From a virus (Duplodnaviria > Caudoviricetes): 36,857 nucleotides of DNA. A model generated the notes under the pieces. It saw nothing but the letters and a program-made list of their open reading frames with translations. It did no database searches and was not told where the DNA came from. Shown piece by piece: positions 2,816 to 36,857 of this stretch. A program made the position numbers and the translations under genes. The first letter of the stretch is position 1. Each line of letters starts with the position of its first letter. Location: positions 1-36,857 of IMG/VR virus record IMGVR_UViG_3300032272_000043; one strand, 5' to 3'.

Positions 2816-3401
2816 ACTCTATCGACGCCCTGATCGCCCTCGTTTCGGCCGCGCGCTTCTCGCCCCTGCATATGGATCCGACTGAGCTTGAGCTAATGCC
2901 ATAGCACTCCGCGATATGGCGCTGTTGTGCCCCTCCCGCATGGAGCAGGCATATCGCGACGGAGTCGTGCGGCGACACCCTGGACGAGCCGTTGGCCACG
3001 CCCATTCTTCTCATCGTCCCCGCAGAAGCGGCATCGCGCATATTGTCTTCGTGCGTTCCACTGCGCAGATGCGCCGGGTTACAGCACCCGCGCTCATTAC
3101 ACGAGTGCAAGACCAGTCGACCGCGCGTGTAGTCGCCCCCAGACAACTCGAACGCCGTGCGGTGTGAGTAGAAACTCCTCTTCGCGATTGCCCCGTTTTC
3201 CCTGAACCTGATCGTAAAAACGCCGTAACCACCGCGCCCGTCTGGGCCCGCGTCACCATTGGTGCACATGAGCCACATCCAGCAGTCGTCTGGCCCTTTT
3301 ATGTCAACGCGTGACCAGAAGTACTCCGGCAGGGGCGCGCCACAAATAAACGTGCGGCCATGCGTCTCCATCATCATCCCAGCTTCTGATTTGTGATTCA
3401 T
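2796..3401 (-). CDS. HNH endonuclease with C-terminal HTH
   Basis: FWSRVD..GPDDCWMW, GYGVF, HR.AFEL, VLHSCNERGCCNPAHLRSGTHEDNMRD. Start placed at ATG 3401, which overlaps the recombinase stop (ATGA). Confidence 0.88.
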   Translation of the reverse strand: MNHKSEAGMMMETHGRTFICGAPLPEYFWSRVDIKGPDDCWMWLMCTNGDAGPDGRGGYGVFTIRFRENGAIAKRSFYSHRTAFELSGGDYTRGRLVLHSCNERGCCNPAHLRSGTHEDNMRDAASAGTMRRMGVANGSSRVSPHDSVAICLLHAGGAQQRHIAECYGISSSSVGSICRGEKRAAETRAIRASIESIRTSR

Positions 3402-3970
3402 TCCCATATCCTTTCGCCCATAACCTTGATTACCGCGGCCGGGCTGATGTGGTCCAAGTACCGGCTCGTCGTTGCGATACTGCTGTGCCCAAGCTGTCGG
3501 CTTATTATGCCGATATCGACGCCCTCCGCGCGGAGTTCGCATGCTAGCGTGTGTCGTAGCCCGTGGGCGTGAACCCTTCTCTCTATACCGGCCCTCTTTG
3601 CCAGCTTCTTAATCATGCGCCGAACATAGCTAGAATCAATGCGTCCGCCGGCCAGTGAACAGAATAGCCAGTCAGACTCAATCCCTGCTGCGGTGCGTTG
3701 CCCCCGCCATTCGTCGATGACCTTAAATGCTCTTGCATCCATCCCGACAGTGCGGTTTTTGTCGCCCTTGCCCCTCATCACCCGCACCGTCCCGCCATCG
3801 GTATCAACGTCCCAGGTCCGCAGGGCCAGCCCCTCGGAGCATCGCAGCCCGGAGCGGTACAGCAGCGTGAGCAGAGCTCTATCCCTCATCCCGGAGACAC
3901 GGCGCACGTCGGCGGCGTCGATTAGGGCGCTGGCCTCGGAGGGGGTTAATGGTTCGGGGGGGTACTTCAT
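3398..3970 (-). CDS. Small tyrosine recombinase (catalytic domain only, about 190 aa)
   Basis: Complete catalytic set: GLRCSE (R), GKGDK (K), HGLRH (HxxR), LGHSS (H), TSRY (Y). ATG 3970 overlaps the methyltransferase stop. Confidence 0.92.
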   Translation of the reverse strand: MKYPPEPLTPSEASALIDAADVRRVSGMRDRALLTLLYRSGLRCSEGLALRTWDVDTDGGTVRVMRGKGDKNRTVGMDARAFKVIDEWRGQRTAAGIESDWLFCSLAGGRIDSSYVRRMIKKLAKRAGIERRVHAHGLRHTLACELRAEGVDIGIISRQLGHSSIATTSRYLDHISPAAVIKVMGERIWE

Positions 3971-4003
3971 TTGCTCAACTCGTTGACTATGTGCCCGATG
4001 ACT
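3967..4003. repeat. 37-bp direct repeat, copy 1 (MTase 3' end plus recombinase start)
   Basis: TCATTTGCTCAACTCGTTGACTATGTGCCCGATGACT; 36/37 identical to 5751..5787. Confidence 0.95.
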
Positions 4004-4908
4004 TCGGCACACTGGGGGACGACGGCGTTCCCGAGGGCTCGGAGTCGGTCCAGCCGATGGGGAATCCCATTAGCCACTCCACAAATGCGGGGGCTAGGGA
4101 TCCGACCCGTTTCGATTCCGTGTCGTAGTTCACAGCCCCAGTTAGGGTGTCCTGTCTCGGCCCGTTCCCCTTCGGCCGACCGTCTATTGCCCGTGGCGTC
4201 GGCAGCGCTCCACGCCGGGCCAGCGTCTCCAGGCTCGGGCGGTCCTTCCCTGCTCGTCCCGCAGCCCCGCCCCTGTTGCTCCCGTAGCTGCTTGCTGTTG
4301 GCGTCGGCAGTAGGTCCGCCCACCCCTCCTTCTGTTTTCCCTTGCCCGTGGCGAAGTTGTGGGGGTTCACGTCTGTTGCCGACCATGTCCTGTTGTGGCT
4401 TGCCTTCCCCGGCCCGTCCGAGGCACGCGGCGTGGGCAACGATAAAGACCCTCCGCCGAAGGTGCGGAGCCCCGACATCATGTGCCGACAGCGGGACCGG
4501 TAACGCTTGGTAGTCGAGTTGTCCCATCCCGGCCATGATTGCGTCGACCCACCGATTAGCCCCGCTGGCGACGTTCTCAATGACGACCCACTCGGGCCTG
4601 AGCTCGCCGACGATCCTGGCAAACTCAAACCACAGTCCCGAGCGCTCTCCAGCAAGGCCCGCGCCCTTTCCTGCGCTGGACACGTCTTGACATGGGAATC
4701 CGCCGCAGATGAGATCGACAGGGGCGAGATTGCCAACTCCAGCTGTTCGGACATCGTCGAACCTTTCAGCGTCGGGCCAATGCCGCGCCAGTATTGATCG
4801 GCAGAAAGCAGACTGCTCGACCTGCCACACCGTGTGGGCTCCGGGGATTGCGCGCTCCAGGCCGAGCTCTAGCCCTCCGATCCCGCTGAATAGTGAGCCT
4901 ATGCGCAT
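3967..4908 (-). CDS. DNA (cytosine-5) methyltransferase, large (alpha) polypeptide lacking motif IX
   Basis: Motif I LFSGIGG, IV GGFPCQDVS, VI IENV, VIII HLRRRVFIVA and X RLRALGNAVVPQ. Confidence 0.92.
   Translation of the reverse strand: MRIGSLFSGIGGLELGLERAIPGAHTVWQVEQSAFCRSILARHWPDAERFDDVRTAGVGNLAPVDLICGGFPCQDVSSAGKGAGLAGERSGLWFEFARIVGELRPEWVVIENVASGANRWVDAIMAGMGQLDYQALPVPLSAHDVGAPHLRRRVFIVAHAACLGRAGEGKPQQDMVGNRREPPQLRHGQGKTEGGVGGPTADANSKQLREQQGRGCGTSREGPPEPGDAGPAWSAADATGNRRSAEGERAETGHPNWGCELRHGIETGRIPSPRICGVANGIPHRLDRLRALGNAVVPQCAEVIGHIVNELSK
3987..4754 (-). CDS. Nested out-of-frame beta polypeptide of the C5 methyltransferase (carries motif IX)
   Basis: 255-codon ORF wholly inside the MTase gene, same strand, different frame. 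Three LPTP repeats and SLAPAFVEWLMGFPIGWT (motif IX-like). Confidence 0.75.
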   Translation of the reverse strand: MSEQLELAISPLSISSAADSHVKTCPAQERARALLESARDCGLSLPGSSASSGPSGSSLRTSPAGLIGGSTQSWPGWDNSTTKRYRSRCRHMMSGLRTFGGGSLSLPTPRASDGPGKASHNRTWSATDVNPHNFATGKGKQKEGWADLLPTPTASSYGSNRGGAAGRAGKDRPSLETLARRGALPTPRAIDGRPKGNGPRQDTLTGAVNYDTESKRVGSLAPAFVEWLMGFPIGWTDSEPSGTPSSPSVPKSSGT

Positions 4909-4938
4909 CAACTAGTCCCGCTTCCTAGAGAAACGTGC

Positions 4939-5708: not shown

Positions 5709-5750
5709 TCTTAACCTCTTTCTTGTCTCGCTTTCGTACCATTTCGTGCC

Positions 5751-5787
5751 TCATTTGCTCAACTCGTTGACTATGTGGCCGATGACT
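5751..5787. repeat. 37-bp direct repeat, copy 2 (orphan MTase 3' end)
   Basis: TCATTTGCTCAACTCGTTGACTATGTGGCCGATGACT; one mismatch to copy 1. Confidence 0.95.
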
Positions 5788-7679: not shown

Positions 7680-8044
7680 GCCCGCCCCTTGCACGGCTCG
7701 CAGTGGCCCTCTGCGCCGCACTCGCACGCCTCGCCCTGCTCTGGCTCTATCGCCCTCAGCGCGGCGCTGGCGACGTTGAGCGGCGCATAGCCCAGGCCCT
7801 CTTGCGGGTTCATGTCGGCAATTTTGCGCAGGGCGGCAACGGCGGCGGAAACCCCCGCCGGCTCCAGGCCGTCCAGGGCGTTGACGCATGCGACGGCACG
7901 GGCTGCGTTTGCCGGGTTGTAGAATATCGGCAAATCAGTGTACCCGTGCGTCGTCAACAGCGGAGCGGCGTGGCGGTCAAGCATCTGGTCCGCCTCGGCC
8001 CCAGCGGTGGCCCACGGCTCCCCGTGCTGTCCTTTGGCGGTCAT
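7676..8044 (-). CDS. Hypothetical phage protein
   Basis: GGAGGA RBS. HGEPW...ANAARAVACVNALDG pattern common in small phage early proteins; C-terminal Cys cluster. Confidence 0.7.
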   Translation of the reverse strand: MTAKGQHGEPWATAGAEADQMLDRHAAPLLTTHGYTDLPIFYNPANAARAVACVNALDGLEPAGVSAAVAALRKIADMNPQEGLGYAPLNVASAALRAIEPEQGEACECGAEGHCEPCKGRA

Positions 8045-8232
8045 CGGTCCTCCTCCGCATCCGCCCTGGCCTCGGCTGCGGCGTTGCGCCACTCGGCGTG
8101 GGCCATGCGATCAAGTAGCTCAATCTCGTCCATGGCGGCGTCGCGGTCGGGGCCCGGTGGCATCTTTTCGGCCTCTTCACGGGCGGCGTCTATCTCGCGG
8201 TCTAGGCCGCGTGCTTCTCCGATGGCGCTCAT
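8041..8232 (-). CDS. Small acidic helical hypothetical protein
   Basis: GGAGG upstream; ATGA-coupled to the exonuclease-RecT gene. Confidence 0.6.
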   Translation of the reverse strand: MSAIGEARGLDREIDAAREEAEKMPPGPDRDAAMDEIELLDRMAHAEWRNAAAEARADAEEDR

Positions 8233-9617
8233 GATACCGCCTCCATTTCTTCTACGGTGTAAAGCCCCAGAATGATGTCCGAGTACACCGCGCGGCATAC
8301 CTCAGACTCGCACCTGTGCCGCAGCATGGTCGCCGGGAATTTCTGGTAGGTCTGCGAGTTCGTGAGCCCGGCGCGTTTGGCATCCTCGATTGTGAAGGAC
8401 ATCCGCGCGGGGTTCTTGCTCCCGACGCGCTTTGTCTCAATCGTGCATACCTCGGCCGTGCTCTCGATGAGGTCGAAATACTCGCAGACATCGCGGCGCT
8501 TGCGGACGAGCCCGACCATTGACGCGGCAGCAAGGCAGGGCTTCCCTTTCACGAGGTAGAAGGCCCGCAGCGAGCTCACCGCATCCAGCCCAAGCGATCG
8601 CCCGGTCATTATCATAGCCAGCGCGGCCTGGGCGTTCGGCAGGTCTGCGAATAGGCGCGACTCAAGCAGCGTCACCGAGAGGCGCTTGGCCTCGTTCAGG
8701 TTCGTTGGCTCCAGCCCGTGCTCCCAGCCGGGGGCGGCGACGGCCATTGCCTGGGTCGGCTGTGGTCCCGCCTCTGGTGCGGCGATAACCTCTGGCTCGG
8801 GCGCGTCGATGGTTTCGGGTGTTTCGGGTGTTTCGGGCTCTTGCATTTCCATCTCCTTGGGCTTGCGTTCTGCGAGTACGGCGTCGACATCGACCGGCGC
8901 GTCGTGCTCTAGCTTGACTAGCTGGTGTGACACCTTGAGCTGCACGCCGTCTAGGGCGTTGCCCGCCTTGTTTAGCTTCTCCTGGCCCGCTGCCTCGATG
9001 ATGCCGTCGAGGTCGCCGTACTGATTGAGCCACTTGGATGCGGTCTTGACTCCGACCCCCGCGACGCCCGGCACGTTGTCTGCCTTGTCGCCGGTGAGGG
9101 CCAGGAGTTCGCAGACGATGCCGGGGGGCACGCCGAACTTTTCGGCCACCTTGCTGGTGTCGTAGGTCGTTTTTGTCATCGTCGAGACGCACCGCACGAC
9201 ATTGCCGCCATCCTCGCCTCCCGACACCAACTGCATCAGGTCCTTATCGGCGCTGTAGATATCCACGCTGACGTCGTAGTCGAGCAGCTTATGGCAGAGC
9301 GTCGCAATAATATCGTCCGCCTCGTATCCCTCCGCGCCCACTATCGGATAGCCATCGGCGCGCAGCTCATCCAGGGCGAGCCTCATGGTCTCATGCATGA
9401 CCGCGGGAGCCTTCTCCCTGTGCGCCTTGTACTCCGCGAGAATCTTGCTGCGGCGGTACGGTGGCGAGTCGATGCAGATGGCGACGCGGTCATAGGCTGA
9501 AGCGTAGCCGGTGATCTCCTGCACGGTTTTGCGCACAGCCGAACTCGTCTCGTCGTTCTCGCTCGCGTGCCAGCGGATTCGGAAAATGTTGGAGAAGTCG
9601 ATTAGTGCGATTTTCAT
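8229..9617 (-). CDS. Fusion of a 5'-3' exonuclease / flap endonuclease (PolA N-terminal type) and a RecT/Bet-like single-strand annealing domain
   Basis: N half: LIDFSN, YKAHR, EADDIIATL, SADKDLMQL, GDKADNVPGVAGVGVKTA (H3TH). Pro/Glu linker. C half: G..LGL, YLVKGKP, FTIEDAKRAGL, YQKFPATML..R, GLYTVEEM. Confidence 0.88.
   Translation of the reverse strand: MKIALIDFSNIFRIRWHASENDETSSAVRKTVQEITGYASAYDRVAICIDSPPYRRSKILAEYKAHREKAPAVMHETMRLALDELRADGYPIVGAEGYEADDIIATLCHKLLDYDVSVDIYSADKDLMQLVSGGEDGGNVVRCVSTMTKTTYDTSKVAEKFGVPPGIVCELLALTGDKADNVPGVAGVGVKTASKWLNQYGDLDGIIEAAGQEKLNKAGNALDGVQLKVSHQLVKLEHDAPVDVDAVLAERKPKEMEMQEPETPETPETIDAPEPEVIAAPEAGPQPTQAMAVAAPGWEHGLEPTNLNEAKRLSVTLLESRLFADLPNAQAALAMIMTGRSLGLDAVSSLRAFYLVKGKPCLAAASMVGLVRKRRDVCEYFDLIESTAEVCTIETKRVGSKNPARMSFTIEDAKRAGLTNSQTYQKFPATMLRHRCESEVCRAVYSDIILGLYTVEEMEAVS
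8812..8837. repeat. 9-bp tandem repeat (GTTTCGGGT) x ~3 encoding PETPETPET in the inter-domain linker
   Basis: Seen directly in the sequence. Confidence 0.85.
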
Positions 9618-10003
9618 GGCTCACCTCGTGAGGACCCACGCGCGCCCGGGGGAGGGTCCGCAAGGCGGCTCAGACGCGCGTGGGTTTCGATAGCACCCTT
9701 GAGGGCGCTGTCGATGGTTTCTGATTTTGCTGGCTTGGCGATGACTGGCCGGTCGGTCTGCGGCTCCCCGCCGCTGTAGATTACGATCGGCACACCGGCT
9801 CGGGCTGCGATGGCAATGACCTCAGCCCCGCCGCCGTCTGGCATGTCCCAGTCGGACAGGATGACATCGGGTCGCTTCAGATCGCAACGCAGAGCGGCCT
9901 CGAGTGGGCCCGCTGCCATGTCGTAATCCCAGTGAAGGCGGCCAAGCGCGCGCGCGACAGAGCGGCGGACAAGGTATTCATCGTCTACGACTAATACGCG
10001 CAT
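9614..10003 (-). CDS. Stand-alone response-regulator receiver (CheY-like) protein
   Basis: RVLVVDDE, PDVILSDWDMPDGGG (phospho-Asp), PIVIYSG, AKP; no output domain. Confidence 0.9.
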   Translation of the reverse strand: MRVLVVDDEYLVRRSVARALGRLHWDYDMAAGPLEAALRCDLKRPDVILSDWDMPDGGGAEVIAIAARAGVPIVIYSGGEPQTDRPVIAKPAKSETIDSALKGAIETHARLSRLADPPPGARGSSRGEP

Positions 10004-11589: not shown

Positions 11590-11807
11590 GAAGCGCCATC
11601 GCATGGGTTGCACTTTTACTTAGCGCGCTCGCCGCCGTCGCTGCCGTTCGGCTGCTGTATCATCTGGCGGCGTTCGCGTTCTTTGGGATGGAGTCGAACG
11701 GAGATCAGAATTTCGCTACCTTCTTTCTGCTCATGACGGCGGGGGCGGTTGGCGGGTGCCTGTGGTTCGTTGTGTGCGATGCGCGTGATGAAAGAGGCGG
11801 CCGATGA
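11586..11807 (+). CDS. Small two-TM membrane protein
   Basis: Two hydrophobic segments; ATGA-coupled on both sides. Confidence 0.65.
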   Translation: MRSAIAWVALLLSALAAVAAVRLLYHLAAFAFFGMESNGDQNFATFFLLMTAGAVGGCLWFVVCDARDERGGR

Positions 11808-12550
11808 GTAAACCCGGCGACGTGTGGGTCTCGCCCTGCGGCCAGATGGAGCTGCGCTGCGGCGACTTTCGCGAGGTGCTGGCTGGCGTTGAGTGCGGCG
11901 CGGTGATTACGGATCCGCCGTATGGGGAAAGGACACACGCGGACGGGGCCAGCCTGTCTGCGTCTGCGTCTGCGTCTGCTCCGGTGCCGATCGGATATCG
12001 CCCGATGACCCCGCAGGGCGTTGCCGAGTCTGCCGCGCTGTGGTCGGGGTGGTGCTCGGGGTGGCTGTGCGTTTTTAGCTGCGACACGCTGCACCCGGTT
12101 TGGCGCGCCGAGATGGAGGCGGCCGGGCGGTATGCTTTCCCCGCGGTGCCTGTCCGGCAGTTTGTCCCACGGCTCGTGGGCGATGGACCGTCCCGATTCG
12201 GCCCCTATCTCACAGTCTCGCGCCCCCGGATGGCTGAGTTTATGAAATGGGGCACACTCCCTGACTGGTATAGCTCAGCCACCACGCGGGGCTATGTGCG
12301 CGGGGGCAAACCGCTGCCCCTGATGCAGGCGATCGTCTCCGACTACTCACGCCCCGGCGATCTGGTCTGCGACCCGTGCGCGGGCGGTGGCACCACTCTG
12401 CTCGCTGCGGCAATCGAGGGGCGGCGGGCAATAGGCGCCGAGCTGGATCCGGAGACGTTCGACAAGGCGGTGGCCCGGCTGTCGCGCGGGTACACGCCGC
12501 GGATGGTGCTGCCAGCGCGCAAGAAGCAGAAACAAGGATCGATGCTGTGA
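11804..12550 (+). CDS. DNA methyltransferase (N6-adenine / N4-cytosine, beta class)
   Basis: VITDPPYG precedes KP..LM and DLVCDPCAGGGTT...GRRAIGAELD. Confidence 0.88.
   Translation: MSKPGDVWVSPCGQMELRCGDFREVLAGVECGAVITDPPYGERTHADGASLSASASASAPVPIGYRPMTPQGVAESAALWSGWCSGWLCVFSCDTLHPVWRAEMEAAGRYAFPAVPVRQFVPRLVGDGPSRFGPYLTVSRPRMAEFMKWGTLPDWYSSATTRGYVRGGKPLPLMQAIVSDYSRPGDLVCDPCAGGGTTLLAAAIEGRRAIGAELDPETFDKAVARLSRGYTPRMVLPARKKQKQGSML
11956..11979. repeat. Hexamer tandem repeat (GTCTGC)x4 encoding SASASASA
   Basis: Seen directly; in frame. Confidence 0.9.
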
Positions 12551-15950: not shown

Positions 15951-17177
15951 ATGGTTGACTCTGGGAAATTGACATCAATGGACGATTTGAAGCCGGCGCC
16001 GTACAACCCGCGCACGATCGATGATGAGTCGGCGGCGGGGCTCGGCTACTCGCTATCTGAGTTCGGCGACCTGTCTGGGCTGACGTGGAACAAGCGCACC
16101 GGGCACATGGTCGCGGGGCACCAGCGCGTTAAAGAGCTCCGCAAGATGGGCGGGCAGATTCTCAAGGGCGCGGTGCAGGTTGCGAATGGCGACAGGTTCG
16201 CGGTTCGCGTTGTGGACTGGCCTGAGTCCAAAGAGAAGGCGGCTAACATCGTGGCCAACTCGCGGCACATTGCGGGCGAGTTTACGCCTGACCTCGCGGG
16301 GCTGATTGCAGAGACGAAGGTCGCGCTGCCGCCTGATGACTTTGCGGGGTTGCGGTTGGACAATCTGTTGGCGGACTCGCCGAAGCTGCCGGTTGAGATT
16401 GAAGAGGATGAGGTCCCTGAGCCGCCGAAGACGCCCGCGACTAAGCTGGGGGATGTTTGGACGCTGGGAGACCACCGACTGGTGTGCGGGGACAGTTCCG
16501 ACGAGAAGGCCTATGGCAGGGCCGTGTCCGGCGAAACGCCTGAGTTGATGGTTACGGATCCGCCCTACGGGGTGAATTACGACCCAAACTGGCGCAACGA
16601 TGCCGCGGATAAGGGATTGATAGCCCACGCGGCGTGCCGCGTGGGCGTGGTTGAGAACGACGACAAGGCCGACTGGTGGGACGCCACGGCAAACTTCAAG
16701 GGCGGAGTTGCCTACGTTTGGCATGCAGGCATTATGGCCGGGGAGGTTCTCCGGGTGCTCGCCGGCTGCGGTTTTGATGTCCGGAGTCAAATCATATGGG
16801 CCAAGGGGAGATTTGCCATCTCTAGGGGCCACTATCATTGGCAGCACGAGCCTTGCTGGTACGCGGTCCGGAAAGGGTCGACGGCGCGATGGGCCGGCGA
16901 CCGGTCGCAGACGACCCTCTGGGAGATCTCCAACGTCCTGAGTGACGCCGAGGGCAAGACGAGCCACGGGACGCAGAAACCACTAGAGTGCATGGCCCGC
17001 CCGATCCGGAATCACGATGGCGACGTTTACGATCCTTTCCTCGGCAGCGGCACTACCCTAATCGCCGCCGAGCAGCTAGGCCGCAAATGCTACGGCGTGG
17101 AAATCTCGCCCGCCTATTGCGACGTCATCGTCGAGCGCTGGGAGAATCTCACAGGCGGCAAGGCAACGCGCAAATGA
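15951..17177 (+). CDS. ParB-like N-terminal domain fused to an N6/N4 DNA methyltransferase
   Basis: LKPAPYNPR...VAGHQR; GDVWTLGDHRLVCGDS, TDPPYGV, HGTQKP, YDPFLGSGTT. Typical position upstream of terminase. Confidence 0.92.
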   Translation: MVDSGKLTSMDDLKPAPYNPRTIDDESAAGLGYSLSEFGDLSGLTWNKRTGHMVAGHQRVKELRKMGGQILKGAVQVANGDRFAVRVVDWPESKEKAANIVANSRHIAGEFTPDLAGLIAETKVALPPDDFAGLRLDNLLADSPKLPVEIEEDEVPEPPKTPATKLGDVWTLGDHRLVCGDSSDEKAYGRAVSGETPELMVTDPPYGVNYDPNWRNDAADKGLIAHAACRVGVVENDDKADWWDATANFKGGVAYVWHAGIMAGEVLRVLAGCGFDVRSQIIWAKGRFAISRGHYHWQHEPCWYAVRKGSTARWAGDRSQTTLWEISNVLSDAEGKTSHGTQKPLECMARPIRNHDGDVYDPFLGSGTTLIAAEQLGRKCYGVEISPAYCDVIVERWENLTGGKATRK

Positions 17178-35197: not shown

Positions 35198-35590
35198 ATG
35201 AAAATAAAAGCACTAACCCTCGCCCTTATCGCCACCGCTGGCTTTATCGCATTCAACGCCTTCGCCGAGCCGGACCAGTTCAGCCGAGACCGCGGCATCG
35301 ACTACGCGCGCGCGTGTATCCCGGTAGCCGGAGAGACAGCGCAGCTATCCGTCACGGCGAGCGCTGGGACCGGGGCGCTCGCGGCGGCGACCGTCTACTC
35401 GTACATCTGCACGGTGGCGACCTATTACGAGTTCGGCGACGCAGCGAACCCGACGGCGGACAGCTCGTCAAACTATCTGCCGAAGGACACGATGATTTAT
35501 TTCAGCACGGGCGCGGTGACATCGCTCTATCTGGCTGCGGTAGATGTCGCCACGGCTGGCGGAACATGCTACGTCCACAAGTGCCGCTAA
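35198..35590 (+). CDS. Secreted small beta-rich protein (Sec signal peptide)
   Basis: MKIKALTLALIATAGFIAFNAFA-EP (AxA cleavage site); AGGAG RBS; 4 Cys. Confidence 0.75.
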   Translation: MKIKALTLALIATAGFIAFNAFAEPDQFSRDRGIDYARACIPVAGETAQLSVTASAGTGALAAATVYSYICTVATYYEFGDAANPTADSSSNYLPKDTMIYFSTGAVTSLYLAAVDVATAGGTCYVHKCR

Positions 35591-35591
35591 C

Positions 35592-36857
35592 ATGCCCCGC
35601 CTACTCCTAGCAACCGCCGCCCTGTGCCTGCTCACGGGCGGCGTAGTCGGTCGCCCCGGTGTCGGGGTCGGTGTTGGTTCAACGTCACGGCAGGGCGGTG
35701 CGCGCCCCGACTTCGCCCCAACCTTCGACGGCGGCGGGGTCGCGAACCTCGATGCGTCGTTGACGATCAACGGGATAACGGTCGAGCCGTTAATTCGGTA
35801 CTACGGCGGGGACGCGGCGTCTGGCACTTGGCCAGCGGCGACATACGGCACGACGCTAACCGAGTTCCTAGATACAAATACCAATTCATTCAACGAAGGC
35901 TCCCCGCTAATGGGGGCCGATGACGACTCAATCTTGCTGTCAGCTAATGCGGGCTCCCGATTTGAGACCTCAGTATCAGCTACTGGCGACCTTGGAACGG
36001 GCGACCTTGCCCTCGCGATCCTGTTCAAAGCGAACACGGGCGGCGGAACATTTCTTGGAAAGCTATCTACGGATGGTTATCAGGTCGCAATAGCAAGCAG
36101 CACTCTTCGGTTCCTTCTGGATGACGCCGACGCGCAGGCCGGTGTTGCAACCGGAACGCTCATCAACGGTGCGTGGTACTACGCGAACTGCTTTATAAAT
36201 CGGGACGAGGCGAGCACAAACGGCAGCCGGTGCTATGCTAACAATACGGCAGGCACGGGGGTCGATCTCTCCGCCCTTGCGAGCACTCTCACAAATTCGA
36301 TCGGAATAGCAATCAACTCCAACGGTGAGGGCAGCGCGGTCGGGGAGGTTAACACTAATCTGGCATACATCGCGGTTTACGAAGCCCCAGGGGCGTGGTT
36401 TCAGGCAGGCGCGGCTGGCCCGGCAGAGTGGGCCACCGTCCACGCCGAGCAATTCGCCAAACTAACCGGCACATGGGACAGCACGTCAAGCGCAGGTCCG
36501 ACAGTCGCAACACGATCAAGCACCGGCACGCTACGCAAACGAACGGCAGGCGTTACCAAGCTATACACCGTGGGTGGGAATTGGCCCCGCACTGAGCGCT
36601 GGGTTGACGACTCAGGCGGCGAGGTAGTTGGCTACCTTGCAGAGCCGGGGCTGTTCAACCTGATCACAGACTCCATGGCCATGGACAACTGGACCGAAAA
36701 GGACGCAGGCGACACACAGGACATCGACGGCGCCGATGATGCGTTCGGGAACGCGACCATGGATGGCAACATCGCAGACGCTACGGATGGCGAGCACGGG
36801 TTCACACATGCCTCAGACGCGACAACGGCCACGGCCTGCACTGTCTCCGCCACGGCT
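35592..36857 (+). CDS. N-terminal part of a large tail fibre / LamG-like protein with signal-peptide-like N-terminus; 3'-partial, absent from the ORF track
   Basis: ATG 35592 (MPRLLLATAALCLLTGGVVG...) is open for 422 codons to the window end; contains ATRSSTGT...PR...GYLAEP...NLI, typical of phage fibre proteins. Confidence 0.75.
   Translation, partial: MPRLLLATAALCLLTGGVVGRPGVGVGVGSTSRQGGARPDFAPTFDGGGVANLDASLTINGITVEPLIRYYGGDAASGTWPAATYGTTLTEFLDTNTNSFNEGSPLMGADDDSILLSANAGSRFETSVSATGDLGTGDLALAILFKANTGGGTFLGKLSTDGYQVAIASSTLRFLLDDADAQAGVATGTLINGAWYYANCFINRDEASTNGSRCYANNTAGTGVDLSALASTLTNSIGIAINSNGEGSAVGEVNTNLAYIAVYEAPGAWFQAGAAGPAEWATVHAEQFAKLTGTWDSTSSAGPTVATRSSTGTLRKRTAGVTKLYTVGGNWPRTERWVDDSGGEVVGYLAEPGLFNLITDSMAMDNWTEKDAGDTQDIDGADDAFGNATMDGNIADATDGEHGFTHASDATTATACTVSATA

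Follow-up and report, generated by a model that had tools for sequence, protein, structure and literature searches.

The fusion gene is an uninterrupted open reading frame (ORF) of 462 codons at positions 8229 to 9617 on the minus strand of the window, the whole stretch of 36,857 nucleotides (nt) of viral DNA analyzed here. The plus strand across the same positions is closed by many stops. The protein of 462 amino acids (aa) combines a FEN-type 5' nuclease, a linker, and a RecT/Red-beta-fold annealase, as assigned with Pfam, PHROG, and AlphaFold2. The 5'-3' exonuclease/flap endonuclease domain with its H3TH motif (assigned by Pfam, fold, and invariant residues) covers residues 1 to 250 (8868 to 9617, minus strand), an acidic linker rich in proline, glutamate, and alanine and of low pLDDT covers residues 251 to 295 (8733 to 8867, minus strand), and the annealase domain (assigned by fold and PHROG) covers residues 296 to 462 (8232 to 8732, minus strand). 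The predicted ribosome-binding site of the gene is GAGGTGA (9621 to 9627, minus strand).

Two neighbors are given for context only. The upstream gene (9614 to 10003, minus strand) encodes a response-regulator receiver domain that stands alone; in an ATGA overlap, its stop runs into the start of the fusion gene, and the two genes are translationally coupled. Downstream, the fusion stop overlaps the start of an acidic ORF of 63 aa (8041 to 8232, minus strand), again as ATGA; scanned as the longer frame 8041 to 8298, this ORF gave no family match and showed no SSB-like tail.

An earlier note on this DNA had placed one ORF at 8229 to 9617, with an exonuclease joined to a RecT/Bet-like annealase by a linker without a stop. 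The single 462-aa minus-strand frame bears this out, and the motifs quoted in support (PETPETPET, YLVKGKP, FTIEDAKRAGL, YQKFPATML, and GLYTVEEM) are all present in the translation. A Logan contig spanning 7900 to 10000 has 0 differences and 0 gaps relative to the window; it comes from the single run holding the fusion, which may be the source of the window itself, and it counts as a second assembly, not as a second sample. The linker is likewise open in more than 200 homologues. The low depth of the single run (about 10) would fit an assembly or annotation artifact, or a decaying chance fusion, to which we nevertheless assign a negligible probability: there are 225 distinct two-domain proteins, the active site is invariant, the second assembly is identical, and the one split copy of the fusion seen (locus L353) has Ns at the break. 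The joining of exonuclease and annealase in one phage chain is confirmed as real and conserved.

Two domains and the linker between them

Residues 3 to 162 match the Pfam family 5_3_exonuc_N (PF02739; 95.9 bits, cutoff 34.3), and residues 163 to 253 match 5_3_exonuc (PF01367; 75.5 bits, cutoff 40). Both matches lie above their cutoffs, in line with the earlier description of residues ~1 to 250 as a PolA/T5-type 5'-3' exonuclease with acidic motifs and an H3TH. In an alignment of 107 sequences (the query and 106 full-length homologues of the same architecture), residues D50, R56, Y63, K64, R67, E99, D101, D102, D124, D126, D177, and D180 are invariant (107/107), and D7 is kept in 105/107, the other 2 being gaps. 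When aligned with Taq, D50/R56/Y63/K64/R67/E99 correspond to D67/R74/Y81/K82/R85/E117 and D101/D102/D124/D126/D177/D180 to D119/D120/D142/D144/D188/D191. Judged by these residues, the metal-binding carboxylates and the basic arch residues of the FEN active site are intact. Structural matches of the N-terminal domain include a plastid exonuclease, FenA, ExoIX, and T5 D15 (Z 25 to 28; Foldseek E 1e-16), and no Pfam match to the 3'-5' exonuclease or polymerase domains of DNA polymerase I was found within the fusion protein. In the AlphaFold2 model from the 107-row alignment (pLDDT 92.5), both domains are ordered and the linker is disordered; the pTM of 0.63 for the full protein suggests that the modeled domains have no fixed relative orientation.

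The C-terminal half had been called RecT/Bet-like, and it does have a Red-beta/RecT fold, with Beta and LiRecT as its best PDB matches. Pfam RecT (PF03837) matches residues 396 to 459 only weakly (21.5 bits, cutoff 24) and exceeds the cutoff in homologues (28.8 bits in G625 and 27.8 bits in P0112). Two PHROG families annotated as "RecT-like ssDNA annealing protein" match within residues 331 to 460, namely, PHROG 4171 (residues 331 to 459; 2.7e-21) and PHROG 561 (4.8e-14). Modeled alone (pLDDT 86.5), the domain finds lambda Red-beta first (7ujl; E 3.8e-5, TM 0.55; Z 9.1, rmsd 3.4 over 130 residues) and LiRecT second (7ub2; E 8.8e-3, TM 0.52, Z 7.1), and with a 14-row sequence profile of the domain Beta is the sole PDB match (E 1.1e-5). 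The signature W-x3-P-x2-ML-R-H-K ... R ... G-x-Y is matched by residues that are conserved across the family: in the profile alignment, Y424, P428, M431, and R433 correspond to Beta W143, P147, M150, and R152, and H434, R435, R442, and Y453 to Beta H153, K154, R161, and Y170.

The protein ends 5 residues after E457 and has no Beta-type C-terminal domain. Tails after the annealase core measure 1 to 18 aa across the 107 aligned fused homologues and 0 to 15 aa in 49/49 complete fused genes of the DNA-derived set; all 16 stand-alone relatives with the same motif have tails of 93 to 332 residues. According to sections of PMC11611040, the C-terminal domain of Beta binds lambda Exo and host SSB, so with this domain the known SSB contact is missing too. 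The same sections give LiRecT a tail of only ~26 residues, and a short tail is therefore not unique to the fusions. In proteins P0113 to P0116 (475 to 480 aa), the same annealase is N-terminal and is followed by a long helical C-terminal part without a known family.

Linker length between anchor residues ranges from 47 to 118 aa among homologues. A fixed 1:1 ratio of nuclease to annealase would be awkward for the coating of long overhangs, and a nested start was therefore sought. In the window, Met258 is preceded by AAGGAG at a spacing of 6 nt (8844 to 8858, minus strand), a putative internal translation start from which a free annealase of 205 aa could possibly be made. Among pooled family proteins, methionine accounts for 241 of 8,996 residues in the first 40 linker positions and for 105 of 7,851 further on, a difference of ~2-fold. 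Where linkers contain an ATG, a Shine-Dalgarno interaction better than −5 kcal/mol occurs in 18/27 representatives, with an expectation of 8.6 of 27 by position shuffling (P < 0.001) and of 15.6 of 27 by synonymous resampling (P = 0.11); because of the latter value, a nested start is inseparable from an E-E-x-x-M protein pattern or from a vestigial start.

Distribution of the fusion and cargo of its nuclease clade

The fusion is widespread in uncultured temperate phages. About 109 near-full-length homologues (32 to 48% identity) were listed in the first search, and the pool of these and the matches of the representative search came to 251 proteins, 225 of them distinct and with both full domains. 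In the DNA searches, 204 loci were examined and 52 distinct fused genes found, with the window counted once. No record among 50,697 GenBank phages covers 80% of the protein (294 partial matches), and 401 genomes of the phylum of genome G001 gave 21 annealase matches, none of them fused. A full fusion (G625) is present in 1/301 genomes sampled from the order to which a Polyangiales MAG belongs, a tally that takes in genome G484, on which no claim rests. This copy is flanked by an integrase and a DnaB-like gene and forms part of a prophage-like island of roughly 12 kb, on a 138-kb contig of otherwise cellular genes (EF-P, DnaX, kinases, and TPR proteins; 46 ORFs scanned). Another homologue is found on a 4.8-kb contig labeled Polyangiaceae. 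These Polyangiales links concern homologues of the window protein. When genome contigs were searched with a profile of the full alignment (3/64 parts scanned), all 80 kept loci matched by the N-terminal domain only and were Pol I. At L162 to L164, L173, L175, and L176, loci in genomes of the myxobacterial phylum, RecT/Bet-like genes lie among housekeeping-type genes, such as those for TPR, CDP-alcohol phosphatidyltransferase, NIF3, and TatD proteins, and are possibly domesticated annealases.

To describe what this type of nuclease is joined to, a nuclease-only profile, 14 of whose 16 rows come from RecT fusions, was searched against 1.84 billion representatives. Among the best 150 matches, 130 carry a RecT-like domain, a share that, given the makeup of the profile, is not a population frequency. 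The remainder carry ERF (2), a C-terminal Sak4/AAA_24 domain (4), an N-terminal AAA_24 domain in reverse order (1), or phrog_10048 (2); 1 is Pol I, and 10 end in the linker or leave the frame, some of which may be true stand-alone forms. At viral locus L093, the nuclease occurs with phrog_3290, "single strand annealing protein," a domain that by its motifs may be Rad52-like. Locus L284 has an unfused FEN, an AAA_24 protein, and an SSB in a row; this AAA_24 protein shares 42% identity with the AAA_24 domain of the reverse-order fusion.

A nuclease tree was built from 102 rows, made up of 46 sampled RecT fusions and the copy in G625, 10 fusions of other kinds, 23 Pol I, and 22 other viral FENs. 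A 98/90 branch separates all 57 fused rows from the rest; the tree is rooted at the midpoint, and its bootstrap had not reached convergence. Cargo changed on this tree at least eight times. One ERF-fused and one Sak4-fused nuclease are sisters with 67% identity, and AU tests, applied to a 30-row subset selected after the tree was seen, reject a single clade for cargo ERF (P = 2e-5), Sak4 (P = 0.001), and RecT. Derivation of the clade from the Pol I of myxobacteria, weak in a quick tree and absent in the careful one, is not supported. A RecT-like domain was found in none of 65 other viral FEN loci fetched. Every identified full-length cargo of the nuclease clade is, or resembles, an annealase.

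The C-terminal phrog_10048 domain of P0306 and P0328, which has a zinc-finger-like Cys insert, sits at the annealase position. In the ESM Atlas, it falls into unnamed clusters only, the nearest named one (SSAP_Sak, 0.78) being under the trust level. The phrog_10048 domain is a candidate for a new annealase family.

Neighboring genes and the phage record

The window has a GC content of about 0.62, and 60 of its 235 listed ORFs were scanned. Matches include an integrase, a replication initiator, DnaB, a RusA-like protein, terminase, portal, capsid, head and tail proteins, and several methyltransferases; this gene content places the fusion in the early/replication region, and the phage is temperate. 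No match to YqaJ, DUF3799, PDDEXK_1, SSB, or Pol A (PF00476) was found in the whole window. Since an initiator and DnaB are encoded yet Pol A is not matched, the phage appears to rely on host polymerases.

These neighbors bear on the proposal that the nuclease serves replication, in primer removal or nucleotide salvage (as with T5 D15, T7 gp6, and T4 RNase H), and that the fusion only coexpresses or colocalizes fork proteins. Phage FENs usually serve in replication, T5 D15 is among the structural neighbors, and fused loci commonly have genes for a helicase, an initiator, or a resolvase nearby. We still regard this explanation as improbable: the window lacks a Pol A match, the identified full-length cargo of the clade is always an annealase or annealase-like, and the 65 other viral FEN loci are without a RecT-like domain.

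The record is rated 45% complete. Its open-ended ORFs (1 to 768 and 35544 to 36857) join in frame within a tail gene, with a terminal stop only, which hints at a near-complete circle despite this rating. A short tyrosine integrase of ~200 aa, with the catalytic domain only, is encoded at 3398 to 4012 (minus strand), and a similar one lies near the fusion in L081 (1977 to 2555). For a 37-kb phage there are at least three DNA methyltransferase genes (3967 to 4911, 11804 to 12550, and 15951 to 17177), plus two HNH endonucleases, and a second frame at 3987 to 4754 scores as a methyltransferase too. A 42-nt direct repeat (3962 to 4003 and 5746 to 5787; 93% identical) flanks 1.8 kb with a DNA methyltransferase gene, and by its sequence this stretch looks like a homology-flanked cassette.

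In a neighbor scan of 93 ORFs of 170 aa or more, a PD-(D/E)xK-type nuclease was found within 2.5 kb in 7/16 stand-alone and 1/22 fused viral loci (Fisher P = 0.005, which overstates the contrast because the fused loci include several close relatives and were covered by less upstream sequence). The contrast is partial, as 9/16 stand-alone annealase loci have no PD-(D/E)xK neighbor seen within 2.5 kb and a PDDEXK_1 neighbor persists at one fused locus, L231. In genomes of the myxobacterial phylum, stand-alone relatives often adjoin YqaJ, DUF3799, or PDDEXK_1. Three stand-alone loci (L227, L234, and L259) have a 3'-5' exonuclease-like neighbor (PF10108) and no PD-(D/E)xK. SSB genes follow the fusion at L084, L085, L092, and L094, a minority of fusions, and an SSB-like PF tail is encoded downstream in 6/46 fused loci, as scored by tail pattern.

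Predicted mode of action and relation to known systems

The fusion protein probably acts as a single-chain exonuclease-annealase (resect-and-anneal) recombinase, an activity predicted from its parts. The FEN domain would resect the 5' strand from a DNA end, leaving a 3' strand for the tethered annealase to bind and anneal to homologous DNA; the same 5' polarity could also trim 5' flaps displaced during strand assimilation. We propose that the FEN domain stands in for lambda Exo or RecE, since fused loci rarely have a separate PD-(D/E)xK partner and cargo swaps repeat. The covalent linker may take over the docking role of the Beta C-terminal domain, since the fused annealases are without the tail through which Beta binds lambda Exo, and the annealase domains may oligomerize like Beta, with the nuclease domains on flexible arms. 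Counted against the one-chain reading are the lost SSB contact, the window without an SSB match, and the restriction of the PF tail to so few fused loci. Counted against it too is that Pol I-type nucleases are described in sections of PMC5499597 as structure-specific flap or junction cutters; long processive resection by a monomeric FEN is hypothetical.

The main alternative, which we judge less likely, is that the single-stranded DNA is made by host enzymes or by replication and paired by the annealase, with the FEN domain on its tether only clipping displaced 5' flaps to give ligatable nicks. Host Pol I already supplies flap activity, which counts against this, as do the absence of a separate resection nuclease at most fused loci and the fact that the lost tail is the one that docks Beta on the resecting nuclease. 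In its favor, flap cleavage is the documented specialty of the FEN fold (sections of PMC5499597), early models of Red resolve joints by 5'-3' exonuclease or Pol I flap activity (sections of PMC7496540), vaccinia G5R is listed as a flap cleaver in recombination (parts of PMC9415595), and the Sak4- and ERF-type fusions fit a role independent of Beta-style loading. Resection with annealing and the trimming of flaps are compatible, not exclusive.

Beyond the resect-and-anneal reading, we consider it possible, though doubtful, that the FEN clade, as a dedicated one, adds another class to the recombination nucleases of phages, a plug-in platform that needs no specific docking surface to resect for unrelated annealases (RecT-like, ERF, phrog_3290, and two Sak4 types). 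In this broader proposal, phrog_10048 would be an unrecognized annealase family, and the nested linker start would yield extra free annealase, so that one gene would set the nuclease-to-annealase ratio.

Sections of PMC7496540 and PMC11611040 name two open questions for lambda Red: in what way the exonuclease and the annealase work together, and by what means a long overhang can be coated by a 1:1 complex. A natural single chain makes the coupling directly testable via linker length and cargo swaps, the latter already made at least eight times in nature. If the resect-and-anneal reading is true, the FEN fold joins the resection nucleases of phage recombination. The protein could also serve as a compact one-gene editing tool in Polyangiales, including Sorangium-type natural-product producers; its efficiency is uncertain, since the SSB-binding tail is lost, and for myxobacteria there is already the two-gene system MxRecET.

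In metagenomes the architecture is common rather than a one-off. No description of a FEN-annealase fusion was found in the full-text literature searched (supplements of SSAP libraries could hold such proteins). The words "fused" and "fusion" are absent from the available sections of PMC8093625, PMC11611040, PMC7496540, PMC11783212, and PMC2896510, and those of the PIN/FEN classification PMC5499597 make no mention of RecT, ERF, Rad52, or annealing. The fusion is thus apparently undescribed in print.

Among known nucleases, the 5' nuclease of Pol I, T5 D15, Escherichia coli ExoIX, and Mycobacterium smegmatis FenA share with the fusion the same Pfam pair (Z 21 to 28) and the Taq-aligned catalytic residues; the fusion differs in having no polymerase and in belonging to a separate clade in which almost every member either carries an annealase or lies next to one. 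The FEN fold in viral recombination has a precedent in vaccinia G5R, a FEN-fold viral nuclease required for double-strand break repair according to parts of PMC9415595, which, however, belongs to a eukaryotic virus and stands alone, with no Rad52/RecT-type annealase attached. MxRecET, like the fusion, consists of phage-type recombination genes from myxobacteria, and it has been used for genome editing; it comprises two RecE/RecT-type genes from Myxococcus, and the only fusions mentioned in the available part of PMC13454183 are engineered.

The closest parallels are lambda Red (Exo and Beta) and Rac RecE and RecT (EATR), in which a phage 5'-3' nuclease is likewise physically coupled to an annealase of the Red-beta/RecT fold, and the fusion annealase resembles the N-terminal domain of Beta in fold (7ujl) and motif. 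Red and RecET are pairs of separate proteins, whereas the fusion is one polypeptide; their nuclease is of the PD-(D/E)xK type, whereas that of the fusion is FEN/H3TH; and the fusion annealase is C-terminal and without the Exo/SSB-binding C-terminal domain. The fusion-type nuclease is, moreover, also joined to ERF, Sak4-type, and other annealases. What is new relative to the known pairs is a predicted exonuclease-annealase recombinase with another nuclease fold, in one chain, and with interchangeable annealases.
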